64,000 nt of DNA from a virus (taxonomy: Duplodnaviria; Heunggongvirae; Uroviricota; Caudoviricetes), in the IMG/VR virus record IMGVR_UViG_3300045988_147305; one strand, 5' to 3'. A model generated the notes under the pieces. It made no database searches. It was given only the letters and a program-made list of their open reading frames with translations, and had not been told where the DNA came from. The translations under genes were made by a program, and so were the position numbers. Within the stretch, counting starts at the first letter, position 1. The number at the start of each line of letters is the position of its first letter. This document shows, in pieces, positions 12,603-47,976 of the stretch.

Positions 12603-12765
12603 AATAATAAATTAATTAGTGCATGTGCGCTCTTTGTGGTAGTGCACTTTAACATCGGGAGAATAATCGTGTCATCCAAGGTTAATTATGAGTCGCTGGC
12701 ATCGGTCATGCCGCGTAATGAACAGGAAACAGATGCTGTAGTGGACCCTGTAATCGCTGAAATGA

Positions 12766-13428
12766 ATGCTCGCCTGGAGGCTGAATTTGCAGCTGAGAAT
12801 GAACATACCACCCAGGGCGACTAGGACTGTTTTTTGTGTCGGTAGCGGTCCGTCACTCACTCGTGAGGACTGTGCTGCTATAGAAAAAACTGGCTGTTCA
12901 ATCATCGCGGTTAACAATTCCTGGCAGATGTTCGATGACATTTATGCCTTATACGCCGGTGATTTGTCATGGTGGAAGCAATACGGTTCCACCATACCGG
13001 GAGGGAGGTTCCGCAAAGTGACAGCCAACCTGGCGGCGGCGAAATCATTTTCGTTGGAGTACAGGCGATATTGTGGACCGGCGGAAGGGGTAAATAGCGG
13101 CGCGCAGGCTATCAGTCTGGCTGCTGAATCAGGGGCTGAAGTAGTGGTATTAGTCGGCTATGACTGTTCTCTGCAAAACGGCCTTCATTGGCATGGCGCG
13201 CACCCTCAAGCCCTACGGAATCCAACGCAGGTGTCTATTTCAAAATGGCAACAGCAGTTCCTGGATACCCGCAAAAAACACGCAGATTTACATATTTTGA
13301 ATGCAAGTAGGAGCAGTGCAATTCAATGTTTCCCAAGAATAAATTTAGAGGCAGTGATCGCGTTATTATCGTCGGCAGTGGCCCAAGCGCCGCAAACTTT
13401 GTTGCGCCGCGCGGAGTGCCGATTATAG
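12766..13428 (+). CDS. Rossmann-like protein with VGSGPS motif, paralog A (possibly DUF115/MAF-like); start may be ATG 12799
   Basis: N-terminal TVFCVGSGPS...IIAVNN; paralogous to the next gene. Confidence 0.5.
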   Translation: MLAWRLNLQLRMNIPPRATRTVFCVGSGPSLTREDCAAIEKTGCSIIAVNNSWQMFDDIYALYAGDLSWWKQYGSTIPGGRFRKVTANLAAAKSFSLEYRRYCGPAEGVNSGAQAISLAAESGAEVVVLVGYDCSLQNGLHWHGAHPQALRNPTQVSISKWQQQFLDTRKKHADLHILNASRSSAIQCFPRINLEAVIALLSSAVAQAPQTLLRRAECRL

Positions 13429-13952
13429 CGGTCAATGGGGCCATCGACTGGCTGAACCGCGCTTCTTATTTTTTCACCCTTGATCCATCCCCAGACAATA
13501 TGCGGCGCGTTGGTCGTGGCCGCCGTCGCCGTGGTGTTTGTTATTGCATGGCACTACCCGATGTTAAAGAACGTGAAGTCAGAGATGGCGTTCTGTGCTT
13601 CCGTCGTGTGGCTGAACGCGGCATGGAGCCAAAAAATACGAATTCTCCCGAGTGGTGGGCGTGGCGCTGGTCCGCACATTTCGGCCTTTGCGAAGATGAG
13701 AATGAAATTGCCAGCGGCAATAGTGCATATGGTGCTCTGAACCTGGCTTTCCATATCGGATTCAAACATGTAGCTCTGGTGGGCGTTGACGCTACGCAAG
13801 AACTACGCGTTCACTCCGGCGGCACGCCAAAAAATCTAAGTCACCTGCCTTTGTTATTCCAGTCTGCGCGTGAACAGATTGACGTTGTTTCATGCGGGAA
13901 AATGGGAGGTATTCCGCAGATGACTCTTAAAGAATGGCTGAAGAATACATGA
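13326..13952 (+). CDS. Rossmann-like protein with VGSGPS motif, paralog B
   Basis: N-terminal [10 protein letters not shown]...IIAVNG; ~100 nt overlap with paralog A. Confidence 0.5.
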
Positions 13953-14626
13953 TGGCACCCACAATTTATCACCGTATCGACGGTACCAAATACAGGAATG
14001 TCTGGGTTGTTGGTGATCTGCATGGTTGCTACACCAGACTGATGTCCGAACTCCATCGTGTGGATTTTGACCCGGCGCAGGATTTACTGATATCGGTCGG
14101 CGACCTTATCGATCGCGGTACTGAAAATGTCGAATGTCTGGAACTATTGCAGATGCCCTGGTTCAGGGCAGTGATGGGGAACCATGAGCGGCTGATGATT
14201 GATGCGTTAAGTCCAGATGGCAACGTGAATAACTGGCTAATGAATGGCGGACAATGGTTCTTCATGCTGGACACTGATCAGGAAATATTAGCCTGGGCGC
14301 TGGTGGAGCTGGTAAAGCGTCTGCCCTATATCATTGAGTTGAACACCGGGCAAGAAACTATCGTTATAGCCCATGCCGACTATCCGGATAATGAATACCA
14401 ATTCGGTAAGGAGGTGCCGCTTTTCAACGTTGTCTGGGCGCGCGAGCGTATCAGTGATTCGATGGATGATATTGGTGGCGAAATTTCGGGCGCAGATCGT
14501 TTTATCTTTGGTCACACTCCGGTGAAAAGCCCGAAGACATTCTGGAATCAGCAGTATATCGACACTGGTGCCGTATTTTGCGGAAACCTGACATTGATGA
14601 AAGTGAAAGGTGATGGTGCAGCATGA
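13949..14626 (+). CDS. ppp: lambda-type Ser/Thr protein phosphatase (calcineurin-like metallophosphoesterase)
   Basis: GDLHGCY, GDLIDRG and GNHE motifs; N-terminus parallels lambda PPase ([17 protein letters not shown]). Confidence 0.85.
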
Positions 14627-15324
14627 AGATTGCTTTAGTTTTTCGCTCTGGTGGTGACTATAACGCTTCCGATGTGCAGTGGCTGGTTAATCAACTGCCA
14701 AAAGACTATGAAATTATTTGCCTGACAGACCTGAAGTGTTTACATGTACCTGGCGTCAAAGTTATCCCATTGATCAACCAGTGGCAAAAGTGCCGTGGCT
14801 GGTGGGCGAAAATCGAGTTGTTCCGACCGGATATAACCGATGATCTGTTCTATCTGGATTTGGACACGGTTATTGCCGGTGATATACGCCCAATCCTAGA
14901 GCATCCACCAACCAGCTTCACCATGCTTAGGGATTTTTACCATCCACAATATCGTGGCAGCGGTGCCCTGTGGATACCAAATAGTGTTAAAGCGCATATC
15001 TGGAGTTCATTCTGGCAAGATCCGGAAGGTTGGATTTCTCGTTGTGTCACTACTGAGTGCTGGGGTGACCAGGGGTTCTTACGAAAGGTTATGGGCGATG
15101 ATACACCAGCATTTCAGGATCTGTATCCAGGATGGTTTGTAAGTTACAAGGCCGATGTTGTGGAACCTGGTTCAAAATATGCGAGCGCGCGTTACTCCAG
15201 GGGGAATGGGACATTACCAAAAGACTGCCGAATAATCTTTTTCCACGGCAAACCGCGACCTCGCGAAGTGTCAGAGGATTGGCTTCCCCTTATCAGCTCA
15301 TTTTTTGAGCGAGAATCAGAATAA
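14623..15324 (+). CDS. putative GT-A fold glycosyltransferase, 233 aa
   Basis: ATGA-coupled start; N-terminal Rossmann-like [13 protein letters not shown] and a DxD motif ([11 protein letters not shown]). Confidence 0.45.
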
Positions 15325-15325
15325 T

Positions 15326-15391
15326 ATTGCTCTAATAATTCCATATTTTTAAAACGTGATGTACACTCATCACGTTTTTTATTAGAGCAAT
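15326..15391. promoter_or_regulatory. two inverted C1-operator-like sites (15326-15342, 15375-15391) flanking a terminator hairpin (15351-15380)
   Basis: ATTGCTCTAATAATTCC and reverse-complement ATTGCTCTAATAAAAAA; hairpin AAAACGTGATG-tacact-CATCACGTTTT. Confidence 0.6.
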
Positions 15392-15405
15392 CTACAAGGT
15401 GCACT

Positions 15406-15624
15406 ATGTGGCCATTCCGACGGAAATATCACTACTGGCTGATCGCCTTTGTTACGCCGACCGGCGGTATCAGGCATGTCATCACCAGGTATCGCAACAA
15501 GAGACTCACCTTAGCCAGAATTTTACAGGCTGCCATAGGTGAGGGACTGGATACAAATTGCGTAGTCCTTCCTCCTTCATACTTAGGAAAAATGACCGAA
15601 GCACAAGCTAATACGGAACTTTGA
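15406..15624 (+). CDS. hypothetical protein, 72 aa
   Basis: ORF with RBS-like AAGGTG; its stop abuts the next start. Confidence 0.35.
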   Translation: MWPFRRKYHYWLIAFVTPTGGIRHVITRYRNKRLTLARILQAAIGEGLDTNCVVLPPSYLGKMTEAQANTEL

Positions 15625-15625
15625 A

Positions 15626-16888
15626 ATGAGCACTTCAGCACAAAACCAATCAATCGAAAATGTATGTATCCCTGATGTCCTGAATGCCGGTATCCCGGCC
15701 ATTATCCAGAACATCCGGGCCGCGCAACGCCGCGTTAGTTGTGATGACCTCACAGCACGTTTTTTTGATAATGCGGTTCAGTCAGCGGAGATGCTTCACG
15801 CACAGCTTATTGATGTTTATAACGCAGAAGCTGATAGCCATAACTCCCTGGTAGATGCAGCTGAAAATATGCAGTTGGATCTCGGTCTGAAGGGTAAAGA
15901 AATTGAAGAGCTTCAGCTGGAAATTGAACATTTGAAACGCCAGCAACAGGACGCGATCGACGATGCGACGCATGACGCCAACCAGCGTGCTGATAATGCC
16001 GAACGTATAAGCATTGAGCTGGAAACAAAACTCAATGAAATGACCGCGATGGTTGAACTGCGGAACTCACAGATTTCAACGCTAAAATCTCAATATAAAG
16101 AGATCATGAAACTTGATCCTTTTAACCTTGAGAAACGCTATAACAAAGCTAAAAGCGAGCGACAGGAACTGCGTAAGCAGGTCGCCGACCTTAACCAACA
16201 GCTCAAAAAAACTATTAAAGATGCAAGCGAGGCGCGCGTGGCATTTGCTAATAAAAAAGCAGAGGTTACCGCGCTGGTTAATGAGAATGCCAAATTTGCG
16301 ACGCTCAAGAAGGAAATGTATGGCATTACTGAGCGCCGTTTCCCTGCAAGCAAACTTCATCCGACGTTAGGGCAAATCTCCTTCTTCCCGCGCCTCCTGG
16401 CTTATGGGATCTCATCGCCTAAAGAGTTCAATAACGAGCGTCCTTATATCGTTTCTAAGCTGGACTTTGCTTATCAGTTCTGCTGCGACATGGGCTATGC
16501 CATTGATATCCGAATCAACGAATGGTTGATGCCAAACTTCCAGCCGTTGGCAATTTTCCGCGAGTTCCAGCCGGAAGGTTGGGTAGAGTTCTTCCATGAA
16601 TTGATCTGTAAAGAGATGGAAAGCCGTCGCCCGGAATTGGTCCGTCGAGTTGAGTGGGCGCAAGAGGTTATGTTGGCAGATGCAGAGCTGCCGTTCGAAC
16701 CGGAATTCATTGATGATCTGGCAACTAAAGGGCTGCATACCCTGTTTGATGTGGTTACCCGCCGTCATGAGCAGTTGGTTGTCGAATTGGGTTTAGAGGA
16801 AACTGCGGCAAGAAGACTTCTCGATGTTTGCTATGCACGTAGCGATGCATGGGAAAAAGAGAACGGCGGCACTATTTACGTTCGCTGA
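15626..16888 (+). CDS. coiled-coil protein, 420 aa, unknown function
   Basis: Long heptad-rich region in residues ~70-230. Confidence 0.5.
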   Translation: MSTSAQNQSIENVCIPDVLNAGIPAIIQNIRAAQRRVSCDDLTARFFDNAVQSAEMLHAQLIDVYNAEADSHNSLVDAAENMQLDLGLKGKEIEELQLEIEHLKRQQQDAIDDATHDANQRADNAERISIELETKLNEMTAMVELRNSQISTLKSQYKEIMKLDPFNLEKRYNKAKSERQELRKQVADLNQQLKKTIKDASEARVAFANKKAEVTALVNENAKFATLKKEMYGITERRFPASKLHPTLGQISFFPRLLAYGISSPKEFNNERPYIVSKLDFAYQFCCDMGYAIDIRINEWLMPNFQPLAIFREFQPEGWVEFFHELICKEMESRRPELVRRVEWAQEVMLADAELPFEPEFIDDLATKGLHTLFDVVTRRHEQLVVELGLEETAARRLLDVCYARSDAWEKENGGTIYVR

Positions 16889-16910
16889 TAGTTACAGTGT
16901 CACTTTTAAT

Positions 16911-16941
16911 GCTGGTGGAGTGCTCCCACCAGCATTTTTTT
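16911..16941 (+). terminator. Rho-independent terminator
   Basis: Hairpin GCTGGTGG-agtgctc-CCACCAGC followed by ATTTTTTT. Confidence 0.65.
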
Positions 16942-16960
16942 CGTCCAATGAGGAGGGCAT

Positions 16961-17467
16961 TTGAGTATTTTCAATAAACACGCACACCAGGAACGTCCGT
17001 ACATCGTCATAGTAGATATTGATGGGACGATATCAGAGGCAACGGAAGACAGGCTGCATTTACTTCCACCACCTGGCAAAGGTGCATTAACAGAGCACTG
17101 GAACGAGTTTAACCTTGCCTGTGACACTGATGCTCCCATCACTCCAGTTATTGATATGGTGCGCCAGTTGTCCGGCATTTACACCCTCTGGTTTGTAACC
17201 GGGCGCTGTGAGATAGCCAGGGATAAAACACGAGCCTGGTTGCGTAAGCACGTAACAAATGGGGCGGAGCCTTTGCTATCTATGCGTCCTGCCACCGATG
17301 ACAGAAATGACGGTCCAGCAAAGATTGATCTCCTGAAGAAAATTGGTCTAAGTAAAATTGCGTTCGCGCTGGAAGATAAGATTGAAGTGGCGCGTGTTTT
17401 CAGGAGTCACGGCGTACTTACGTTAATGGTCAGGGAGTATGAAAACGCGCTTCTCCATCAACAATAA
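16961..17467 (+). CDS. HAD-superfamily phosphatase, 168 aa (PNK-phosphatase-like)
   Basis: HAD motif I DIDGT, motif II FVTGR; TTG start with RBS GGAGGG. Confidence 0.65.
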   Translation: MSIFNKHAHQERPYIVIVDIDGTISEATEDRLHLLPPPGKGALTEHWNEFNLACDTDAPITPVIDMVRQLSGIYTLWFVTGRCEIARDKTRAWLRKHVTNGAEPLLSMRPATDDRNDGPAKIDLLKKIGLSKIAFALEDKIEVARVFRSHGVLTLMVREYENALLHQQ

Positions 17468-17483
17468 TTGCTCTAATAAATCT
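17467..17483 (+). promoter_or_regulatory. C1 operator (ATTGCTCTAATAAATCT)
   Basis: 15/17 match to operator consensus; upstream of the 17.5-25.6 kb gene block. Confidence 0.6.
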
Positions 17484-17565
17484 TGATTTTTAAAACAGAG
17501 AAAGTGAAAATAAAAACATGCCGTAAGGCGCGGCATGTATCCAATCAATCACAGGAGCTGAAAAT

Positions 17566-17652
17566 ATGAACACGGCATTCAAAATCATTATGGCCGCGAT
17601 CTATTTCTGGCTGTTCTCTATCACTTTTGGCGGCATCGTCGCACATGGGTAA
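17566..17652 (+). CDS. 28-aa hydrophobic peptide (MNTAFKIIMAAIYFWLFSITFGGIVAHG)
   Basis: ATG with RBS AGGAG 8 nt upstream; single predicted TM helix; below the 60-aa ORF-track cutoff, found by hand. Confidence 0.4.
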   Translation: MNTAFKIIMAAIYFWLFSITFGGIVAHG

Positions 17653-17661
17653 GGGGGATGC

Positions 17662-18369
17662 ATGAAAGGCGAAGTGAAAGAGCGCGGCATGATTTTCAAC
17701 GATGAGATGGTCCGGGCCATCCTCGAAGGAAGGAAAACGCAGACGCGGCGGATAATGAAAAATCAGCCTGCGGAAGTTGGTCCAGAAGCACCAGTGATGG
17801 TTAGAAAAATTGGTGCAGGTTTTCAGTGGTACGGGGCTGATGGTGTAAGCAGTGTTTTCAATTGCCCATTTGGTATCGTCGGCGATCGAATTTGGGTTCG
17901 TGAAACATGGGCGATATTAGGCAATGAGGATGGTTGCAGTGTGGACTGGAACGACAACCTTTGTCGTGGCGATGAGAAGAACGCAGCAAGGATTTATCGG
18001 GCCAGTTGCGAGCAAAAACCTGGTGATTACGGCTTATGGTCGATACCCGATGATGCCGACTGGAAACCTCACACTGTGAATGAAAAGTTTGATGGTGGGT
18101 GGCGTCCATCAATTCACATGCCGCGATGGGCATCACGCATTCTGTTGGAAATTACCAACGTGCGCGTTGAACGGTTGAACGATATCAGCGAATGCGATGC
18201 AAGGGCTGAGGGCGTTCCGCCTGCTGGAAGTTTGCTTCCTGATCACCCGGGAACATTCCTTACTCCCAAGGGGGATTTCGCAATGGCCAAGGTTGCGTTC
18301 CAGCGCCTGTGGGAATCCATCTATGGTGAAGAAAGCTGGAACGCTAATCCCTGGGTGTGGGTACCGTGA
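17662..18369 (+). CDS. ASCH/PUA-like domain protein, 235 aa
   Basis: N-terminal IFNDEMVRAILEGRKTQTRR motif typical of phage ASCH-like proteins; RBS AGGGGG. Confidence 0.5.
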   Translation: MKGEVKERGMIFNDEMVRAILEGRKTQTRRIMKNQPAEVGPEAPVMVRKIGAGFQWYGADGVSSVFNCPFGIVGDRIWVRETWAILGNEDGCSVDWNDNLCRGDEKNAARIYRASCEQKPGDYGLWSIPDDADWKPHTVNEKFDGGWRPSIHMPRWASRILLEITNVRVERLNDISECDARAEGVPPAGSLLPDHPGTFLTPKGDFAMAKVAFQRLWESIYGEESWNANPWVWVP

Positions 18370-18531
18370 TCACCAAAGATGGCCCGAAGGTAAAAAAACT
18401 GCACCAAACAGAGCGGATGTGGGTCGTTGGCAAAAACGAGTTTTACCACAAAGAAACTGGACGCCGCCATTTTGCAGAAAATACGCGCCGCCGACTGCTG
18501 TTAGACACCATCAAGCCTATCGAGGTGAAGC

Positions 18532-18771
18532 ATGTTTAAACAGAACGAAAAAGCTATCGCTCAAATTGCTGATTATATCCCGCGTGCGTGCCGGGGTATG
18601 CAGTTGCAGGAAGCCAAAGCGCGCCTGGAGAAAAAAATTGCGCTCTATATTGATGACGGCTGTGATTCCGCCGTTCTTAACGCGGCGTTCGCACCAGCTC
18701 TTAACTGTCACACTCGGGAGTCTTTTTTTTCGTGCATCGCAGCGCAACTCCGCCAAGGAGGCAACCAGTGA
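18532..18771 (+). CDS. hypothetical protein, 79 aa; C-terminal tail LRQGGNQ shared with the Ea22-like protein at 19409
   Basis: ATG with RBS GAGGTG. Confidence 0.45.
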   Translation: MFKQNEKAIAQIADYIPRACRGMQLQEAKARLEKKIALYIDDGCDSAVLNAAFAPALNCHTRESFFSCIAAQLRQGGNQ

Positions 18772-19412
18772 GTAACCGTTTTTACATGATGTGCTTGCGT
18801 GAAACTGTGGGTAATAACGCCTCATTCCATTGCCATAACGGCAATGGTTACAGTTCTGATATCGATCGCGCTCATGTTTACACGCTGGAAGAAGCCCAAA
18901 AAGCCTGGAATTGTGGGCGAGATATCGATCAGCCTGTTTGTGCCGATAGTGTGGATGCAATGGCTGTGTGGCACGTTGATTGCCAGTACATCCCTACAGA
19001 AAGCCTGATTGAGTCAGATTGCACTGCGTATGTGGCCTACAAAAAAGGTAGCTGGAACGGCAACGATGTTTACTGGCTTCAACACGGTGGATTGCCAACA
19101 GATGACTTCAGTAAAGCGACCATCTTTAGCGTCGCCAACAAAAACGAACCAGGAATAGTTTGGTTGCCATTTTCCATTGCTGATGCAGCAAAGCGCCGGA
19201 CGTTCAATATCAATAAATTTAACCGCAGAACAATGGTTCAGGGCGCAGGTTTGGTCATGCCTGACTGGTTGAAAAAGCAGAACAGAAGAAAGAAGTCGCG
19301 AAGCGGGAAGGTGCGTTGGAATTGTCCGCATTGCGGAAAAATCACCTGGCAGTACAGCCCATATGATTTTGAAGGCTGTCGTGATTACAACTGTGAAGGA
19401 TGGCGAGAATGA
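18768..19412 (+). CDS. Cys-rich hypothetical protein, ~214 aa
   Basis: GTG start overlapping upstream stop (GGAGGCAACCAGTGA); C-terminal CxxC...CxxC. Confidence 0.45.
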   Translation: MSNRFYMMCLRETVGNNASFHCHNGNGYSSDIDRAHVYTLEEAQKAWNCGRDIDQPVCADSVDAMAVWHVDCQYIPTESLIESDCTAYVAYKKGSWNGNDVYWLQHGGLPTDDFSKATIFSVANKNEPGIVWLPFSIADAAKRRTFNINKFNRRTMVQGAGLVMPDWLKKQNRRKKSRSGKVRWNCPHCGKITWQYSPYDFEGCRDYNCEGWRE

Positions 19413-20131
19413 CAATTGACTATCAGGTACTGCGTGAGGCGGCAGAAAAGGCAACACCAGACGAATGGGTCGCATTTATTTCGCCGGGTACTGGTACATA
19501 TGCGGTGCATACACCCGGTGATAAACGATGTGGAGACGTTATCAAATGGCCCGGCTTTGATGGACAGGAAAACGCAGAGAATAACGCTCGTTATGTTGCC
19601 GCGTTCAACCCAAAGGTTGCACTGGAGCTGCTTGGTGAAATTAAGCGCCTGGAGGACACAAATATTGATGCTATGTGTCGAATTGCAGAGCTTGAGACTA
19701 ATCTCGCGGCGCTGGTGGCGGAGAATGCGGGGCTTAAGGCCTTCAAAACCGCCGTTTATCAGCAGATGGGCGTCGGATGTGATGCTCCTGAATTCTCCAT
19801 TACGGTAGGTTTGAGTAACTTACGTCGTTTTGCTGACACACTCCACGCCATTGAGCGTGAGTTCTTTACCAAAGAGCTACCTGATGAAGAGCACGAAGGC
19901 GAAACATTCAATGAATGTCCACTTAGCTGGGGAATGAGCGTCGAACAGTACGTTTCCGAGTTTCGCAAATGCCTGGCTGAAGTGCGGGCGCAGGGATTGG
20001 AGATGTTTGCACAGAAATGTAACTCAAAATCCGAACAGTCATTTGCATCTGATATACGCGATAACTGGAAACTACTCGGTGAACATGCCACTGACTTTGC
20101 CGCAGAGCTTCGAAAAGGAGGCAACCAGTGA
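19409..20131 (+). CDS. Ead/Ea22-like family protein (from memory), paralog A
   Basis: N-terminal IDYQVLREAAEKATP...NARYVAAFNP..ALELLGEI plus coiled coil; ATGA coupling. Confidence 0.45.
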   Translation: MTIDYQVLREAAEKATPDEWVAFISPGTGTYAVHTPGDKRCGDVIKWPGFDGQENAENNARYVAAFNPKVALELLGEIKRLEDTNIDAMCRIAELETNLAALVAENAGLKAFKTAVYQQMGVGCDAPEFSITVGLSNLRRFADTLHAIEREFFTKELPDEEHEGETFNECPLSWGMSVEQYVSEFRKCLAEVRAQGLEMFAQKCNSKSEQSFASDIRDNWKLLGEHATDFAAELRKGGNQ

Positions 20132-20880
20132 GCAAGATTGACTATCAGGCACTGCGTGAGGCGGCAGAGCGTGCAATTCCGGCAATGGAACGCCTGTTAA
20201 TGTTGCCAGTTGATGATGATCTGATAAGTGAACAGGAACTTAAAGATTACGGCGTGGATATTGATGCGCTCAACGCCTTCAAATTTCTGACCGGACCAGA
20301 AACCGTGCTGGCGCTGCTGGATGAACGGGAAAGAAACCAGCAATACATAAAACGCCGCGATCAGGAGAACGAGGATATTGCGCTAACGGTAGGGAAGCTG
20401 AGAGTTGAGCTTGAGGAAGTAAAACAACACGCTGAAGAATTATCCGAAACCAAGGCTGTTCGTAACCAATGGCGGCCAGATATTTGCCCAATAACCGGAC
20501 GTGCATTTTTCATGTGGATTGAGCATCCAACATTGGGAAATGTGCCGACATATGGTGGCCCATTAGATAGTTACACCATTCCAACAAAGGACGGTGACGG
20601 TGAGTTTTCATGTGAGCGTTACGATCATGATTTTGGCGGTTGGGTAGAAAGCGAATGTCTTGGGGTATATCTGATTGATGATAGAGAACAATGCAGGGTC
20701 TACGAACTGGAGGAACGCGTTAAGGAACTGGATGCTCGGGAAATATCGCTCCCGGAACGTAGCAGCATGCTTCATCGAACAGATTTTCACGATGATTACC
20801 AAACGGTAATGGCATACAAAGTTTCTGAAGTCATCGCTGCAATCCGCGCCGCAGGCATTCGCATCAAAGGAGGTGAGTAA
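20128..20880 (+). CDS. Ead/Ea22-like family protein, paralog B
   Basis: N-terminal IDYQALREAAERA...; GTG start in repeated junction AAGGAGGCAACCAGTGAG. Confidence 0.45.
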   Translation: MSKIDYQALREAAERAIPAMERLLMLPVDDDLISEQELKDYGVDIDALNAFKFLTGPETVLALLDERERNQQYIKRRDQENEDIALTVGKLRVELEEVKQHAEELSETKAVRNQWRPDICPITGRAFFMWIEHPTLGNVPTYGGPLDSYTIPTKDGDGEFSCERYDHDFGGWVESECLGVYLIDDREQCRVYELEERVKELDAREISLPERSSMLHRTDFHDDYQTVMAYKVSEVIAAIRAAGIRIKGGE

Positions 20881-21056
20881 TGCGTGTGGCATGTATCGGC
20901 TTGTTACCGTACCCGACTCGTTTTTGGGCTTCTGCGCTAATTGCGAAGCCGTATGTCCTGATGGCTGACAACATCATCCCGGCACCAAAGCGCCGCCATA
21001 CCGGTATTGCAGCGGCACGACGAGCAGCAAAGAGACGCAGGAGAGCAAAGCGATGA
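20880..21056 (+). CDS. 58-aa Arg/Lys-rich small protein
   Basis: ATG overlapping upstream stop (TAATG); C-terminal RRAAKRRRRAKR; below the ORF-track cutoff. Confidence 0.3.
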   Translation: MRVACIGLLPYPTRFWASALIAKPYVLMADNIIPAPKRRHTGIAAARRAAKRRRRAKR

Positions 21057-21226
21057 AAAACCGTAAGGCAAAACGACTTTTTTTTACAGCGACCTGTGCG
21101 TGTGGTGGAGCTGGTTATTAGCAACCATAAGATAGCGGTACTCCATCCATTTGGTCAGGTGGCTTTTGCCGCAAAGCGTAAGCCTACTGCGTCACAGAAC
21201 AGGCGGAAGAAAGGGTACGCTGTAAG

Positions 21227-21415
21227 ATGAAAAACCGTAAAGCAAAGATTCTGTTAGTTCGTAGAAACGCTCCTGGCGTCTGGCAGTGGGTGAGACTCAG
21301 CAACCGACGGATGGGGTTGATGAAATATTACGGGATGATGGATTGTGGTTTTTGCAAAAAGCCCAGCGCGGCGCAAAACCGCTGGAAAAACCACTTGCGC
21401 ACTAAAGGAGAGTGA
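21227..21415 (+). CDS. 62-aa small protein starting MKNRKAK; a truncated 22-codon duplicate lies at 21053-21121
   Basis: Direct repeat ATGAAAAACCGTAA(G/A)GCAAA at 21053 and 21227. Confidence 0.35.
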   Translation: MKNRKAKILLVRRNAPGVWQWVRLSNRRMGLMKYYGMMDCGFCKKPSAAQNRWKNHLRTKGE

Positions 21416-21416
21416 T

Positions 21417-21932
21417 ATGGCGTTAACACACCGCGAACTCTGTCAGATTGCGTACAAGTTCCTTAAGCGCAACGGGTTCAAGGTTTGTTTTCATGACCGC
21501 TTTATAGCTGTAACCAGTACCGGAGAACAGCCAGATGCTATGGGATTCAGAAATTCAGCATCATGCCTGATAGAGGCGAAGTGTTCTCGTGCTGACTTGT
21601 TGGCAGATAGAAAAAAGCGTTTTCGTAAAAATCCGTCTCTTGGAATGGGCGACTGGCGATTCTTTATTAGTGAGCCGGGAATTATTTCAATTGAGGATTT
21701 ACCACCTGGCTGGGGATTACTTCACGTTGTTAACGGAAGAGTACGGAAAGTACATGGGTGGCCCAAGGGTAATTGCTGTTGGGGTAATCCTGACGATAAG
21801 CCATTTACTGGAAATAAGCAGGTTGAATGCGATTACATGTTATCTGCATTAAGGCGCATGGAGTTGAGAGGGCACCTTAATGAAATATATGACGGTGTAA
21901 TTGTTAATAAGAAAGAAGGAAACGCGGCATGA
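21417..21932 (+). CDS. hypothetical protein with PD-(D/E)XK-like motif, ~171 aa
   Basis: RBS AAAGGAG before ATG 21417; QPDAMGF...LIEAK fits D...ExK. Confidence 0.4.
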   Translation: MALTHRELCQIAYKFLKRNGFKVCFHDRFIAVTSTGEQPDAMGFRNSASCLIEAKCSRADLLADRKKRFRKNPSLGMGDWRFFISEPGIISIEDLPPGWGLLHVVNGRVRKVHGWPKGNCCWGNPDDKPFTGNKQVECDYMLSALRRMELRGHLNEIYDGVIVNKKEGNAA

Positions 21933-22393
21933 CCACTATTACCAATAAGAAACAGTATCCCAGCGAGCAATATCTTAATGAGCTGATCACCAACATAGAG
22001 TTTGCCGCAAGGGCACCAGTTGAAGTCGTGAGAGCAATGGCAGCAGAGCTACAGAAGCGGCGCGAAGCTGATAGTGCAGAACCAGTTGCTTATATTTTCA
22101 AACATCCGGCCGGGAAATTATTCTGGGCTTTAACGGATGAAAGCAATAAAGAGCAAGCGGACGTTATTCCTGTTTATGCTGCCGCGCCTGCGTCGGTTGT
22201 GCCGGATAATGCATCAGAGCCTCTTGCTTATGCTTACAAAGAGCTTACGCCTGAGATTATGCGCAACCATTTAGCTGTATTCGAGCGATATGGAATAGCC
22301 CCAAACGATAGCACTACCACAATTCAGGCACTGCGAATCGCGCTGGATGGTATAGAGCGGAGCGACGCCATGCTTCAGGGTAAAGGAGGGTGA
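21929..22393 (+). CDS. hypothetical protein, 154 aa
   Basis: ATGA-coupled ORF. Confidence 0.4.
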   Translation: MTTITNKKQYPSEQYLNELITNIEFAARAPVEVVRAMAAELQKRREADSAEPVAYIFKHPAGKLFWALTDESNKEQADVIPVYAAAPASVVPDNASEPLAYAYKELTPEIMRNHLAVFERYGIAPNDSTTTIQALRIALDGIERSDAMLQGKGG

Positions 22394-22394
22394 T

Positions 22395-22604
22395 ATGGCT
22401 ATTGCCGCAAGTTACACAATGCATCTCTATTGTGATTGCCTCCAGTGTACAGATGGCAAATATAAGTCGCCAGACTTCGGTGAGTATATCGGTACGTCAT
22501 GGTCTGGTTGTGCAAAAGAGGCCCGTAAAGACGGGTGGCGAATAAGCGCCGACAAAACACGTGCTTTTGCGCCCGGGCATAAAGTTTTGAGGATTAACAA
22601 ATGA
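22395..22604 (+). CDS. Cys-rich small protein, 69 aa
   Basis: CDCLQC motif; coupled to flanking ORFs. Confidence 0.35.
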   Translation: MAIAASYTMHLYCDCLQCTDGKYKSPDFGEYIGTSWSGCAKEARKDGWRISADKTRAFAPGHKVLRINK

Positions 22605-23209
22605 CCACTATTACCAGAGAACAAACTCTGAAAATTATTGAGGCAGCCGATGAGGTTATTAGTGCGCTTGCCGGAACTAACGAGGATGTTCACCCTGGTA
22701 GCGATAACATGCTACGCCTGTGGGATGACCTGAATGACCGTTACGCGCCCCCGGAAGTAGTGCGTGAGCTGGCACGAATTGTGCTGGCATCGCTGGAAGC
22801 CGAACCTGTAAGCCAAACTTACAACTTGCCAGAATTAATCGAGGGCATGGAAGTTTCCATTGATGTAAGCACTTGTGATGCTGATTTAGGTAATCGCTAT
22901 TTCGGCACCGTCACCGAGGCGTCAGAACTTGATACTGCCAAGAATGGTTACATCCTCCTGGTTCAGGACGCAGAGCCAAACTTCGATGTAAATGGCAACT
23001 CTCCGGTAACTCCGGATAGTTGGATAAGCTGTAGTGAGCGAATGCCCGCTCAAGATGATTGGATTTTAATTTATTCAAAGCACGGCGAGTATATGGCAGG
23101 CCAGGTGCAAGGGGAATACGTGGAGTTGAGCGACGGCACTTTATCGTGGTTAGGGAACGCCTTGTTCTGGATGCCGCTACCAGAACCGCCGCAGGAGGTG
23201 AATCAATGA
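22601..23209 (+). CDS. hypothetical protein with DUF551-like C-terminus, 202 aa
   Basis: C-terminal W.S.SERMP...W...MPLPEPP pattern. Confidence 0.4.
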   Translation: MTTITREQTLKIIEAADEVISALAGTNEDVHPGSDNMLRLWDDLNDRYAPPEVVRELARIVLASLEAEPVSQTYNLPELIEGMEVSIDVSTCDADLGNRYFGTVTEASELDTAKNGYILLVQDAEPNFDVNGNSPVTPDSWISCSERMPAQDDWILIYSKHGEYMAGQVQGEYVELSDGTLSWLGNALFWMPLPEPPQEVNQ

Positions 23210-23273
23210 GCTGGCCTGAAGCATTCACCACGGTAGGAATTGTGATGGCGGCAGCACTGGGTTTGTATTCAAT

Positions 23274-23525
23274 TTGTCGCTGGTGGTAACGATGGGAAAA
23301 ATAACTTTTGTAGTCGAATTTGAGGATGGCAAAGAGCCACCTGTTAGCGCCAATCTTGATGTTGCTGGTGGCAGGCTTGTTTCGGTTCTATTTGGTGACT
23401 ACCGAGATGACTTCTTCCAACCAGAAGAAGTTGATGTAGTGCGAGAGGCATTAAACGAGTTAAGTGTTGATAACGATGATGCTCATGCGGAAATCATCCA
23501 AAAAATGGAACTGCTAACTCACTAA
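23274..23525 (+). CDS. acidic hypothetical protein, 83 aa
   Basis: ORF only. Confidence 0.35.
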   Translation: MSLVVTMGKITFVVEFEDGKEPPVSANLDVAGGRLVSVLFGDYRDDFFQPEEVDVVREALNELSVDNDDAHAEIIQKMELLTH

Positions 23526-28289: not shown

Positions 28290-28306
28290 ATTGCTCTAAT
28301 GTATTG
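28290..28306 (+). promoter_or_regulatory. C1 operator upstream of lpa (ATTGCTCTAATGTATTG), overlapping a candidate promoter (-35 TTGCTA, -10 TATTAT ~28326)
   Basis: Operator-like 17-mer with promoter hexamers at 17-bp spacing. Confidence 0.55.
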
Positions 28307-32563: not shown

Positions 32564-32580
32564 AGATTTATTAGTGCATT
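32564..32580 (-). promoter_or_regulatory. C1-operator-like site between coi and c1
   Basis: Reverse-complement 17-mer AATGCACTAATAAATCT (3 mismatches); a 12-bp perfect inverted repeat lies at 32493-32533. Confidence 0.45.
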
Positions 32581-32789
32581 TATTGTGAGTCTGGCTGGTT
32601 AGTGGCCATGAGATATTCGATTGTGTCAGTGAGATCATCCAGGTCGTCTTGGGTGATGCGGTACTCCTGATTGGATATCTTTGAGTAGTGTTCAGCAATG
32701 GCGCGGGCAGCGTCGGTTTCGGCGGGGTCTACAGATAAAGCGTTAGAGCAATGTCTAACGTCGTCGATGGTTGGTGGAATGAAAGCCAT
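32580..32789 (-). CDS. coi: C1 inactivator Coi
   Basis: 69-aa ORF immediately upstream of c1 on the same strand. Confidence 0.65.
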   Translation of the reverse strand: MAFIPPTIDDVRHCSNALSVDPAETDAARAIAEHYSKISNQEYRITQDDLDDLTDTIEYLMATNQPDSQ

Positions 32790-33027
32790 AATTATGCCTC
32801 ACTGTATTGACAACACAGAGCCTGAAGCTCTGACCTACTGTTTCACCCATGATCCATGCTGGGGTAATCTAACAACATTGCGCTGTGTGTAAGATGAGCA
32901 ATGCATAGCTGTAATGCCGTTGTATAAGGTTTCCCTGTTTGCTCATTTCCTTCTGAGCCGCTCTACAACGCTGAAGACACATTAAATAGTGAATCCAAAG
33001 TCGTATTACGAAACGGCGGCAAAACTA

Positions 33028-33127
33028 TAATTTATTAGAGCAATTGTCAAACAACTATGAAAAACAATCCAGTTTTTGGCTGGTGGAGTGGGATTTTTCT
33101 CTCAAAATTTATTGCTCTAATAATTCT
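33028..33127. promoter_or_regulatory. pair of C1 operators in opposite orientation (33028-33044 minus; 33111-33127 plus) left of loxP
   Basis: TAATTTATTAGAGCAAT and ATTGCTCTAATAATTCT. Confidence 0.6.
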
Positions 33128-33168
33128 TGATTTTTATGCGCAGCTGGACGTAAACTCCTCTTCAGACC

Positions 33169-33202
33169 TAATAACTTCGTATAGCATACATTATACGAAG
33201 TT
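33169..33202 (+). other. loxP site
   Basis: Exact ATAACTTCGTATA-GCATACAT-TATACGAAGTTAT. Confidence 0.98.
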
Positions 33203-33276
33203 ATCTTAAGGGTTATTGAACATGATCAATTTACCTGTAAATCCATACAGTTCAATACCTTATCAGGTCAAATAGT

Positions 33277-33296
33277 GATCACTTGATCATTTGATC
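33277..33296. promoter_or_regulatory. cluster of three Dam GATC sites between loxP and cre
   Basis: GTGATCACTTGATCATTTGATCAA; Dam regulation of a cre promoter in P1 is recalled. Confidence 0.5.
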
Positions 33297-33393
33297 AAGG
33301 TTGCGCTACGTAAAATCTGTGAAATGTTGGCAGTGTTAGTGCTCCAGATTTCGCGTAGCGCACTTAGCACCACCAATCAATCAGAGGTGAAAA

Positions 33394-33615
33394 ATGGGAT
33401 ATTCAGCTGCTAAAGTGTCCACTCATATTGAGCTTGAGAAAAACCGTGGTTACTGGCGGGCAAAAGGGTTTGATCGTGATAGTTGTCAACTGTCATTATC
33501 GCGCGGTGAAGAGAAAATAGAACGCACGCGCGGTCGCTGGCGTTTCTATGACGAGAACCATAAACAGGTAAAGGCAGAGCCGATCCTGTACACTTTACTT
33601 AAAACCATTATCTGA
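33394..33615 (+). CDS. small basic ORF (73 aa) between loxP and cre
   Basis: Good RBS GAGGTG; not a P1 gene I recall. Confidence 0.3.
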   Translation: MGYSAAKVSTHIELEKNRGYWRAKGFDRDSCQLSLSRGEEKIERTRGRWRFYDENHKQVKAEPILYTLLKTII

Positions 33616-33622
33616 GTGTTAA

Positions 33623-34654
33623 ATGTCCAATTTACTGACCGTACACCAAAATTTGCCTGCATTACCGGTCGATGCAACGAGTGATGAGGTTCGCAAGAAC
33701 CTGATGGACATGTTCAGGGATCGCCAGGCGTTTTCTGAGCATACCTGGAAAATGCTTCTGTCCGTTTGCCGATCGTGGGCGGCATGGTGCAAGTTGAATA
33801 ACCGGAAATGGTTTCCCGCAGAACCTGAAGATGTTCGCGATTATCTTCTATATCTTCAGGCGCGCGGTCTGGCAGTGAAAACTATCCAGCAACATTTGGG
33901 CCAGCTAAATATGCTTCATCGTCGGTCCGGGCTGCCACGACCAAGTGACAGCAATGCTGTTTCACTGGTCATGCGACGGATCCGAAAAGAAAACGTTGAT
34001 GCCGGTGAGCGTGCAAAACAGGCGCTGGCGTTCGAACGCACTGATTTCGACCAGGTTCGTTCACTCATGGAAAATAGCGATCGCTGCCAGGATATACGTA
34101 ATCTGGCATTTCTGGGGATTGCTTATAACACCCTGTTACGTATAGCCGAAATTTCTAGGATCAGAGTTAAAGATATCTCACGTACTGACGGTGGGAGAAT
34201 GTTAATCCATATTGGCAGAACGAAAACGCTGGTTAGCACCGCTGGTGTAGAGAAGGCACTTAGTCTGGGGGTAACTAAACTGGTTGAGCGATGGATTTCT
34301 GTCTCTGGTGTGGCTGATGATCCGAATAACTACTTGTTTTGCCGTGTCAGAAAAAATGGTGTTGCCGCGCCATCTGCCACCAGCCAGCTATCAACTCGCG
34401 CCCTGGAAGGGATTTTTGAAGCAACTCACCGATTGATTTACGGGGCTAAGGATGACTCTGGCCAGAGGTACCTGGCCTGGTCTGGACACAGTGCCCGTGT
34501 CGGAGCCGCGCGAGATATGGCCCGCGCCGGAGTTTCAATACCGGAGATCATGCAAGCTGGTGGCTGGACCAACGTAAATATTGTCATGAACTACATTCGT
34601 AACCTGGATAGTGAAACGGGGGCAATGGTGCGCCTGCTGGAAGATGGCGATTAG
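33623..34654 (+). CDS. cre: Cre tyrosine recombinase
   Basis: 343 aa beginning MSNLLTVHQNLPALPVDATSDEVRKNLMDMFRDRQAFSEHTWKMLLSVCRSWAAWCKLNN; catalytic region ...GHSARVGAARDMARAG...W.... Confidence 0.98.
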   Translation: MSNLLTVHQNLPALPVDATSDEVRKNLMDMFRDRQAFSEHTWKMLLSVCRSWAAWCKLNNRKWFPAEPEDVRDYLLYLQARGLAVKTIQQHLGQLNMLHRRSGLPRPSDSNAVSLVMRRIRKENVDAGERAKQALAFERTDFDQVRSLMENSDRCQDIRNLAFLGIAYNTLLRIAEISRIRVKDISRTDGGRMLIHIGRTKTLVSTAGVEKALSLGVTKLVERWISVSGVADDPNNYLFCRVRKNGVAAPSATSQLSTRALEGIFEATHRLIYGAKDDSGQRYLAWSGHSARVGAARDMARAGVSIPEIMQAGGWTNVNIVMNYIRNLDSETGAMVRLLEDGD

Positions 34655-34671
34655 CCGTTCATTTGCGCAAG

Positions 34672-34688
34672 ATTGCTCTAATTATTTG
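34672..34688 (+). promoter_or_regulatory. C1 operator downstream of cre (ATTGCTCTAATTATTTG)
   Basis: 14/17 match to consensus. Confidence 0.55.
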
Positions 34689-34704
34689 ATATTTATGGTG
34701 ACAC

Positions 34705-35016
34705 ATGCGGAAGGATTTCAAAATAGACGGAAAATATGTGGTGCTGTCTGTAAGCTCTCAAATTCAGTCACCATCTGTCATTGTCACCGTAAAGTTGAGC
34801 GATAGGATGCCTGATATCGACTCGATATCTGTTGCGTTCCCCGTTAAAAGCATGCGGAGTGCTGAACATTTTGTGATGAATGCAACGGAGGAGGAAGCGC
34901 GGCGCGGGCTTACTAGAGTGATGGCGGAATTTGGCGAACTCCTGGGTAAGGTAAACAATGCCCTTTCAATCAGTTCAGCAAGATCCAAAGCGTTAACAGC
35001 TTCCATGATGAAATAA
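34705..35016 (+). CDS. cra: cre-associated small protein, 103 aa
   Basis: Synteny; a bidirectional terminator hairpin follows at 35021-35041. Confidence 0.45.
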   Translation: MRKDFKIDGKYVVLSVSSQIQSPSVIVTVKLSDRMPDIDSISVAFPVKSMRSAEHFVMNATEEEARRGLTRVMAEFGELLGKVNNALSISSARSKALTASMMK

Positions 35017-35147
35017 AAAAAGCCTGGCAAGGAGCCAGGCTGCACAAAAGAGCGGGTTTGTATTCCGCATCCAATCAATCAAGAAGGAGTATAGCACACA
35101 GGTACTGAAGTGAAAAAATGTGATTCGCGATTAACAAAATATCTACC

Positions 35148-35177
35148 ATTGCTCTAATTGATTGCTATAATTAAGCC
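35148..35177 (+). promoter_or_regulatory. tandem overlapping C1 operators upstream of ref
   Basis: ATTGCTCTAATTGATTG and ATTGCTATAATTAAGCC. Confidence 0.6.
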
Positions 35178-47959: not shown

Positions 47960-47976
47960 ATTGCTCTAATTAATTT
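47960..47976 (+). promoter_or_regulatory. C1 operator upstream of ssb (ATTGCTCTAATTAATTT)
   Basis: 16/17 match to consensus. Confidence 0.65.

Follow-up and report, generated by a model that had tools for sequence, protein, structure and literature searches.

What do the genes pmgO, pmgP and pmgQ do for the phages that carry them? Although bacteriophage P1 appears in textbooks and serves Escherichia coli geneticists as a workhorse, a fifth of its genes are still without a function. In the original P1 annotation most of the genes discussed here were given a 'putative morphogenetic function', solely from their late-operon location. The DNA analysed (IMG/VR record IMGVR_UViG_3300045988_147305; 64,000 nucleotides, hereafter the window) is, judged by its sequence, a P1-type phage-plasmid: positions 12600-17600 show 98.9% identity to P1 (AF234172, 79426-84426) and 99.5% to the P1-like phage-plasmid JL22. 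An original prediction, made from the letters alone, had described positions 12766-17467 as a run of sugar- and phospho-transfer enzymes acting in one pathway. All the open reading frames (ORFs) it listed were found in place, on the plus strand, and correspond to annotated P1 genes; the motifs it named are all present as well. The run as a whole does not behave as one pathway, since only pmgO, pmgP and pmgQ persist in 38 lineages outside the P1 group. Our best, if still tentative, explanation is that these three genes form a late-expressed cytoplasmic cassette that glycosylates virion proteins with host nucleotide sugars.

The presence of two paralogous proteins with a VGSGPS glycine loop, noticed in the original prediction, was borne out. 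PmgO (12799-13428, plus strand) and PmgP (13326-13952, plus strand) carry the loop as FCVGSGPSL and IIVGSGPSA, respectively, and profile-profile comparison with hhalign joined them at a probability of 99.6% (E 1e-24), by which measure they are true paralogues. The annotated start of pmgO (ATG 12766) overlaps pmgN by 59 nt, and homologues start approximately 11 residues later. Given that the homologues begin there and that residues 1-15 of the model are disordered, the start of pmgO is probably ATG 12799. The invariant residues of PmgO are the GPSL loop, N50, D66, N110-S-G, G131-Y-D133 and H141/H143/H146, and those of PmgP are N37-G, D53, G131-N-S, D155 and H173. Both paralogues therefore have invariant Asn, Asp and His at equivalent places, with the His (H141/H143/H146 and H173, respectively), possible counterparts of the catalytic His188 of Cst-II, following the G-x-D strand, and the N-terminal GxGPS loop and the S-G...G-x-D residues are invariant or near-invariant in both families.

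Structure prediction, which had been proposed as a check, supports a Maf / MptE / Cst-I sialyltransferase-like fold for both proteins. The modelled fold (AlphaFold2, pLDDT 86.7 for PmgO) is common to PmgO, PmgP and the solved members of the Maf and MptE groups, and the best structural match of PmgO is Maf, with 163 residues aligned vs 128. In a profile comparison of PmgO with Cst-II (2drj, 1ro8) the GPSL loop and the S-G...G-x-D strand fell in register, at an E of only ~0.1. A structure search against BFVD returned mostly unnamed phage proteins, with GT29 and sialyltransferase proteins among the viral structural neighbours. The family relative P0255 passes PF01973 (MptE-like) at 44.1 bits, and a precomputed PF01973 label is attached to many PmgO and PmgP homologues. 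Sequence searches of PmgO against the PDB gave chance matches only, a PmgP profile search of the same database gave no match, and NCBIfam contains no family for PmgO, PmgP or PmgQ. PmgO (~209 aa) and PmgP (208 aa) correspond to the central domain only and are devoid of Maf-like flanking domains (Maf ~600 aa). RefSeq re-annotation and the PHROG label name PmgO 'alpha-2,3-sialyltransferase', which in our analysis is a fold-level transfer. Since the fold is also used by pyrophosphokinases, the two proteins are best called putative glycosyltransferases. It was also observed that hundreds of PmgO and PmgP homologue names contain the misspelling 'norphogenetic protein', which originates from a note on P1 pmgM.

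The third member, PmgQ (14623-15324, plus strand), had been read as a GT-A-like protein from the DxD motif in YLDLDTVI, and this reading held. The DxD (D79, D81) is invariant among 29 homologues, and so are G148-D149, S174/K176 and H208-G-x-P-x-P213; when written out as H208-G209-x-P211-R212-P213 (within FHGxPRP), the last motif is invariant or near-invariant. The AlphaFold2 model built with these homologues reached a pLDDT of 94.5, and the top 48 Foldseek matches in the PDB were GT8 enzymes (E ~1e-8 to 1e-7, TM 0.5-0.6), including AgtA (6mw5, 1.4e-8), glycogenin, WbbM, LgtC and GlyE. The model thus supports a GT-A fold closest to GT8. A phmmer search against the PDB found AgtA (6mw5) across the DxD region at E 0.089, which is not significant, and RefSeq re-annotation and PHROG label PmgQ 'glycosyltransferase'. 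The fold assignments originally made by eye from short motifs are consequently in agreement with the predicted structures, Maf/MptE/Cst-like for PmgO and PmgP and GT8-like for PmgQ.

The distribution of the three genes was followed with a PmgP profile, which returned 17 loci in a scan of one genome per species and 41 diverse loci in viral contigs. For the latter the alignment had a distant sequence first, as a P1-first alignment gave only P1 clones, and co-occurrence was scored by profile searches of all three proteins at those loci. PmgP and PmgQ were found together at every one of the 41 diverse viral loci, and PmgO at 33 of them. The triad is clustered in L003, L005, L097, L098, L102, L103 and nearly all other loci. 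When PmgP lineages were defined at 90% identity, 47 were obtained, nine of them P1-like; among the 38 non-P1 lineages only PmgO, PmgP and PmgQ stay together. It is only in P1-like elements that Ppp, PmgR, PmgS, Pap, PmgL and PmgM adjoin the triad. The more distant of these elements show the order M-O-P-Q-R-S without ppp, a gene missing between P and Q in L119, L121, L125, L131, L140 and all non-P1 loci. As the triad alone persists outside P1-like elements, the conserved functional unit is pmgO, pmgP and pmgQ. The lineages span Proteobacteria and Bacteroidota, with further triads in Zhongshania, Commensalibacter, Brevundimonas, Methylophilaceae and Sinomicrobium (Bacteroidota); each host that could be identified is Gram-negative. 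When 1.84 billion representatives were searched exhaustively, 553 cluster representatives of the PmgP family were obtained at E<=1e-3.

Gene fusions tie the three proteins together further. P0051 (376 aa) is a PmgO::PmgP fusion directly followed by a PmgQ homologue, in an unrelated phage where it adjoins the lysis cassette, and other fusions comprise P::Q (P0219, P0284), Q::P (P0300), Q::P::methyltransferase (P0269) and methyltransferase::P (P0304). A lambdoid prophage of Citrobacter rodentium carries O-P-Q between the lysis genes and the small terminase gene. A 213-aa gene in this prophage and a 192-aa gene in L003, both beside the triad, have no P1 homologues. Cassettes of other phages contain FkbM-type methyltransferases (Methyltransf_21, 43-50 bits vs a cut-off of 22.7), further S-adenosylmethionine-dependent methyltransferases, extra weak GT-A, GT2, GT8 or Nucleotid_trans genes, weak Capsule_synth (KpsC/KpsS-like) matches, a PHROG 'glucosyltransferase' and one sulfotransferase. 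Judging from these matches, this is the make-up of a glycan-assembly cassette. Two enlarged cassettes from metagenomic phages (L222, 4900-10100; L223, 1400-5800) lie beside a Gp13-like capsid gene and encode an FkbM methyltransferase, a sulfotransferase, several proteins of 190-280 aa and a PmgP fused to a second domain of ~200 aa, which hints at more elaborate virion glycans.

Regulation and genome position point to late expression among structural genes. The P1 operon running from pmgL to pmgQ is driven by LPpmgL (11669-11687, plus strand), a promoter annotated as late and Lpa-dependent, which is divergent from the baseplate gene 26 and has its -22 box in common with the divergent LP26. C1 operators are located nearby, including O26 (11702-11718, minus strand; two mismatches to the operator consensus), and the promoter/operator region of the window (11649-11744) is 100% identical to that of P1. 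Because of the late promoter and the C1 operators, the cassette is expected to be off in lysogens and on in lytic growth. In 18 of the 38 non-P1 lineages, portal, protease, major-capsid, head-tail-adaptor, head-closure or tail-terminator genes are found within four genes, and three more lineages adjoin terminase or portal genes. For example, the gene order in L097 is portal - protease - major capsid - [O, P, (methyltransferase), Q] - head-tail adaptor, and in L220 it is connector - head closure - [P::Q] - HK97 gp10-like - tail completion - tail tube. Same-strand neighbours lie at median distances of 8 and -12 nt, leaving no room for independent promoters. The proteins of the P1 block are without membrane segments, the maximum 19-residue Kyte-Doolittle hydropathy being <=1.4 for all of them.

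Taken together, the folds and the gene context allow a mechanism to be proposed, in which we infer the glycosyltransferase activity, the identity of the donor and the virion as target. PmgO and PmgP would act as paired Maf / GT42 / GT73-like transferases moving an ulosonic acid from a host cytidine monophosphate (CMP)-sugar, probably as one complex in view of the fusions. PmgQ would be a metal-dependent (DxD) GT8-like transferase, probably retaining, which adds a hexose from a uridine diphosphate (UDP)-sugar. As no sugar-nucleotide synthesis or sugar-activation gene is carried by the phage, the cassette presumably draws on host nucleotide sugars, and the obvious donors in E. coli K-12 would be CMP-3-deoxy-D-manno-octulosonic acid (CMP-Kdo) and UDP-glucose or UDP-galactose. 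The Maf/GT42-type fold serves CMP-activated ulosonic acids, namely sialic, pseudaminic and legionaminic acid and Kdo. From what is established for lipopolysaccharide (LPS) biosynthesis, CMP-Kdo is the only universal CMP-ulosonic acid in Gram-negative hosts. With Gram-negative hosts and no activation genes, Kdo is hence the most economical guess for the donor, one weakly supported by a collinear, statistically weak similarity to WaaZ. The nonulosonate-type modification originally envisaged is therefore plausible as far as glycan building with an ulosonic-acid-type donor is concerned.

The three enzymes would build a short glycan, which in many relatives may be O-methylated too. Its target would be something made late, and the late structural-operon position together with the resemblance to Maf suggests virion proteins (head, connector or tail) as the most probable acceptors. 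From the proposed targets of DNA, virion and host envelope, the gene neighbourhood favours the virion, DNA is unlikely and the envelope is a live rival. The modification would act outside the cell, for instance on the stability of the particles, the masking of their surface, or their immune and adsorption behaviour. No plaque defect resulted when pmgO, pmgP or pmgQ was knocked out or knocked down (PMC10695390; PMC9024508).

The closest known counterparts of PmgO and PmgP are the Maf flagellin glycosyltransferases, with which they share the MptE-like/DUF115 core and the GxGPS loop (Magnetospirillum Maf, PDB 5mu5; 16% sequence identity). Maf has ~630 aa and additional domains at both termini, which are believed to hold flagellin, whereas PmgO and PmgP consist of the bare catalytic core of 200 aa and occur as a paralogous pair. 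Maf enzymes are cytoplasmic, O-glycosylate a protein that is later assembled outside the cell and use CMP-nonulosonic acids. E. coli K-12 makes neither pseudaminic nor legionaminic acid, so in P1 the donor must differ. A likeness also exists to GT42 Cst-I and Cst-II of Campylobacter and to GT29, as the PmgO GPSL loop and SG...G-x-D strand align with Cst-II; however, that similarity is not significant, K-12 has no source of sialic acid, and the acceptor of the Cst enzymes is lipooligosaccharide. In PmgP the full-length motif order (SGPxS, AVNG, TLD, G-x-D-x-T) is that of WaaZ (GT73), the KdoIII transferase of the E. coli K-12 LPS inner core, whose donor CMP-Kdo is available in every Gram-negative host. 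When an alignment of eight WaaZ sequences was compared by hhalign, the probability was only 36% for PmgP (E 3.7e-4, 184 collinear columns) and only 55% for PmgO, over the C-terminal half only. WaaZ differs from PmgP in its length of 283 aa and in having an insertion, and GT73, for which there is no solved structure, is predicted to have a 'variant fold' (PMC8476585).

PmgQ resembles the retaining GT8 enzymes (glycogenin, LgtC, AgtA, the C-domain of WbbM, GlyE) in its GT-A fold and invariant DxD, but it is shorter (233 aa), has 12-18% identity to them and has no Pfam Glyco_transf_8 match. Its C-terminal H-G-x-P-R/K-P resembles the GT8 motif HxxGxxKPW, whose His completes the metal site, and may be equivalent to it. 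As regards phage systems, glycosyltransferases of actinobacteriophages (mycobacteriophage Che8 type) have been shown experimentally to glycosylate virions, according to work cited in PMC11256854. Like these, pmgOPQ is phage-encoded, dispensable for growth and proposed to decorate the capsid or tail by means of host nucleotide sugars; unlike it, the actinobacteriophage systems employ other enzyme families in Gram-positive or mycolate hosts, and glycosylation is demonstrated there and predicted here. Virion glycosylation by phages is therefore already known as a kind, while the enzyme set, the host range and possibly the sugar would be new. The lysogenic-conversion systems gtrABC and oac are comparable in that phage enzymes alter a host surface glycan which is also a phage receptor. 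Those systems are prophage-expressed and comprise membrane proteins with a periplasmic action, whereas the P1 cassette is C1-repressed, late and without membrane segments.

Several observations weigh against virion glycosylation by pmgOPQ. With respect to the profile searches that had been proposed, the HAD family was passed by Pap, but PF01973 scored PmgO at 23.4 and PmgP at 20.9 bits vs a Pfam cut-off of 34.6, and PmgQ had no Pfam match at E<=0.1, including Glyco_transf_8 (PF01501). Approximately six lineages adjoin lysis genes and not structural genes, and two cassettes, in a Bacteroidota phage (L103, 6800-12100) and in the 385-kb Xanthomonas jumbo phage XacN1 (L182, 5300-7950), adjoin ribonucleotide reductase genes. 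No experiment has revealed a glycan on P1 virions, and the published virion proteome of P1 was not searched for any. Host-acting morons can also sit inside structural operons, and we know of no precedent for protein glycosylation with Kdo. Furthermore, both enzyme families are precisely those of the E. coli LPS core (WaaZ of GT73; WaaO and WaaJ of GT8), and since the P1 receptor is the LPS core, an action on the envelope stays a live alternative.

According to this main rival, the LPS core or another envelope glycolipid would be remodelled during lytic growth, with a WaaZ-like extra Kdo and a GT8 hexose masking or truncating the P1 receptor and thereby limiting superinfection and the loss of progeny on debris. 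We regard it as a minor but real possibility. The WaaZ alignment is collinear with the PmgP profile over its 184 columns, with SGPxS, AVNG, TLD and G-x-D in register, and the PmgP half of the fusion P0051 has a faint precomputed match to Pfam WaaZ_KDO_III (PF27901). GT8 is the family of LgtC and of the E. coli outer-core enzymes WaaO and WaaJ; every identifiable host is Gram-negative; weak matches to Capsule_synth (KpsC/KpsS, Kdo transferase) occur in accessory genes; and several cassettes adjoin lysis genes. PmgO and PmgP are also basic, as is WaaZ, although the isoelectric point is uninformative for discriminating membrane-associated LPS enzymes from soluble ones. Against this, the similarity to WaaZ is weak at hhalign probabilities of 36-55%, LPS made minutes before lysis would hardly alter the existing outer membrane, and membrane or flippase components are absent. 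The C1-repressed late operon of P1, off in lysogens, and the position of other copies inside late structural operons without promoter room are also difficult to reconcile with envelope remodelling. A glycosylated protein outside the virion, be it a surface-exposed or secreted protein of the host or one serving host defence or regulation, seems to us unlikely. Maf, the best structural match of PmgO, is indeed a protein (flagellin) glycosyltransferase, and chromosomal triads of five Pseudescherichia species and Serratia are interleaved with adhesin genes; however, it is head and connector genes that surround most phage copies, and no Big_1 protein is encoded in the P1 window or the phage loci.

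It is very unlikely that PmgO and PmgP are pyrophosphokinases of the MptE / thiamin-pyrophosphokinase type, acting on a small molecule or nucleotide whose product is then used by PmgQ. PF01973 is the sole Pfam family detected and the invariant Asp residues could bind Mg-ATP, yet Maf is the top match with the longest alignment, the motifs line up with those by which Cst-II binds its CMP-sugar, viral structural neighbours comprise GT29 and sialyltransferase proteins, and the partnership or fusion with a GT-A glycosyltransferase and sugar-type methyltransferases is constant. Glycosylation of phage DNA (hypermodified bases) as a defence against restriction would suit the two cassettes of L103 and XacN1, which adjoin ribonucleotide reductase and DNA polymerase genes, and phage DNA glycosyltransferases are a known class (bioRxiv 10.1101/2023.12.21.572611). 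We nevertheless consider it highly improbable, as most copies are in structural operons and at none of the loci examined is the triad accompanied by a gene for a hydroxymethylase, a TET-like enzyme or a base-modifying protein. To our knowledge, methyl groups are the only marks on P1 DNA, and its cutting and sequencing proceed normally. Anti-restriction was unchanged in P1 knockouts (PMC9024508). The notion that the whole block (pmgL/pmgM, pmgO/pmgP, ppp, pmgQ, pmgS, pap and Dbn) is a single sugar-nucleotide/phospho-transfer pathway retains scarcely any credibility, as the gene distribution goes a long way towards refuting it. In its favour, P1 has these genes side by side on one strand, Pap and Ppp are a HAD phosphatase and a phosphoesterase, respectively, a GT-B match below threshold was obtained for Dbn, and close to one metagenomic cassette (L224) there is a Metallophos gene, encoded on the other strand. 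However, Ppp, PmgS, Pap, PmgR, PmgL and PmgM accompany the triad only in P1-like elements, with ppp missing even from distant ones, Pap belongs to a polynucleotide 3'-phosphatase family and lies behind a terminator, and pmgQ and pmgR are divided by C1 operators and a promoter.

Returning to virion glycosylation by pmgOPQ, the chromosomal copies of the triad deserve attention. They were found in five Pseudescherichia species (L091-L095, metagenome-assembled genomes, ~200-16500) and in Serratia plymuthica (L006, 4500-17800), interleaved with Big_1 / inverse-autotransporter adhesin genes, one of them encoding 1178 aa with IAT_beta and seven Big_1 domains. These loci may be adhesin-glycosylation islands, and because of the interleaving protein substrates fit. 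An Ig-like Big_1 domain as the common target was considered and rejected, since none is present in the P1 window or any phage locus. In its most far-reaching form our proposal would be that P1 and several hundred lineages of Gram-negative phages coat their particles with a short O-linked glycan, which the Maf-like pair starts or extends with Kdo or another host CMP-ulosonic acid and the GT8 hexosyltransferase finishes, and that some enterobacteria have reused the triad on inverse-autotransporter adhesins. In this full extent we think it rather unlikely.

As far as we found, the triad and its structural-operon context were previously undescribed, the genes themselves being known P1 genes with fold-level RefSeq annotations. 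Our literature search found no paper that gives a function to pmgO, pmgP or pmgQ or describes the triad, and no report of phage DUF115/Maf enzymes or of glycosylated virions of Gram-negative phages. If particle coating is true, both a virion glycosylation system in phages of Gram-negative bacteria and protein glycosylation with Kdo would be seen for the first time. Phage therapy (immune recognition, particle clearance) as well as phage stability and adsorption would be affected, and glycobiology would see enzymes of the Maf/sialyltransferase fold put to a new use, perhaps with Kdo as the sugar. Should the LPS core be the target instead, a new receptor-masking mechanism would emerge for a phage using the LPS core as receptor. 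The vague pmg annotation is in any case turned into a concrete and cheaply testable hypothesis, namely that virions of Gram-negative phages are glycosylated with host sugars, and single-gene P1 knockouts exist (PMC9024508). A false lead is also removed, with the phosphatases, the nuclease and the coiled-coil protein placed outside the pathway.

Regarding these neighbours, our analysis indicates that ppp, pmgR, pmgS, pap, pmgL, pmgM and dbn have functions separate from the cassette. The lambda-type Ser/Thr phosphatase named in the original prediction is Ppp (13934-14626, plus strand), which by its profile matches is a lambda/PrpA-type metallophosphatase (Metallophos PF00149, E 9e-16, 59.3 bits vs a cut-off of 21.5; phrog_246 NinI-like at 5e-113). 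It is PrpA/PrpB-like; its score with NCBIfam PRK11439, 272.5 bits, falls short of the equivalog cut-off (326). The possibility that ppp belongs to the cassette was rejected, as its insertion between pmgP and pmgQ is confined to the P1/P7 clade. The HAD phosphatase with DIDGT was likewise recovered as Pap (16961-17467, plus strand), with the motif at residues 20-24, and sequence matches make it a stand-alone PNKP-type (polynucleotide 3'-phosphatase) enzyme (PF25109 HAD_PNKP, 44.1 bits vs a cut-off of 27.6; phrog_415 'polynucleotide kinase' at 5.7e-56; a weak PDB match to Pnkp1, 4xrp). A strong intrinsic-terminator-like hairpin (11-bp stem, 16908-16936) followed by a T-run (16908-16946 in total, plus strand) separates the stop codon of pmgS from the start of pap, so pap is a separate transcription unit. 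A role of Pap as a sugar-phosphate (KdsC-like) phosphatase was rejected on account of its PNKP-type family and its separate transcription.

Upstream of the cassette, the TraR-like zinc finger and the VRR-NUC nuclease that had been predicted are present as PmgL (11776-12021, plus strand; DksA/TraR-type, phrog_54 at 1.6e-12) and PmgM (12024-12602, plus strand), respectively. PmgM scores 21.2 bits with VRR-NUC PF08774, below the cut-off of 23.8, and matches phrog_5702 (Holliday-junction resolvase) at 4.8e-27. The pmgN gene (12669-12824, plus strand) encodes an acidic protein of 51 aa. It was scored essential by CRISPR interference but not by knockout (table of PMC10695390), a discrepancy that may be a polar effect. 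Downstream, pmgR (15406-15624, plus strand) has a knockout phenotype reported in PMC9024508. The 420-aa coiled-coil protein of the original prediction exists as the PmgS ORF (15626-16888, plus strand), but only weak coiled-coil-type matches (SMC, TPR) were obtained, at approximately residues 60-235, besides phrog_1660 (name only). pmgS is restricted to P1-like elements and is non-essential (PMC10695390). The GT-B-like C-terminus ascribed to Dbn (5833-6831) corresponds to a match of its C-terminal third with Glycos_transf_1 that remains sub-threshold (23.8 bits vs a cut-off of 26.4). The proposed link to the pathway was not sustained, as dbn is in a different operon, adjoins ban and showed no link to pmgOPQ.

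Finally, the C1 operator consensus gave 14 matches across the window, where 0.2 were expected. Oppp (12609-12625, minus strand), transferred from the P1 annotation, is a diverged operator with four mismatches to the consensus and overlaps the predicted sigma-70 promoter PpmgN. OpmgRa (15326-15342, plus strand) and OpmgRb (15375-15391, minus strand) flank the promoter PpmgR and separate pmgQ from pmgR (15326-15391), while OpmgT (17467-17483, plus strand) has one mismatch. Further matches at 1268-1295, 28290-28306, 32564-35164, 44111-44127 and 47960-47976 are consistent with the known dispersed C1 regulon of P1. Beyond the block, positions 17500-23500 are not colinear with P1 c1.100 (pmgT/pmgU/pmgV region). 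This part is a mosaic common to P7 upf86-89 and to Ea22/EaA-like genes of Stx-converting lambdoid phages, and the largest cover of it by any single phage record is 54%.

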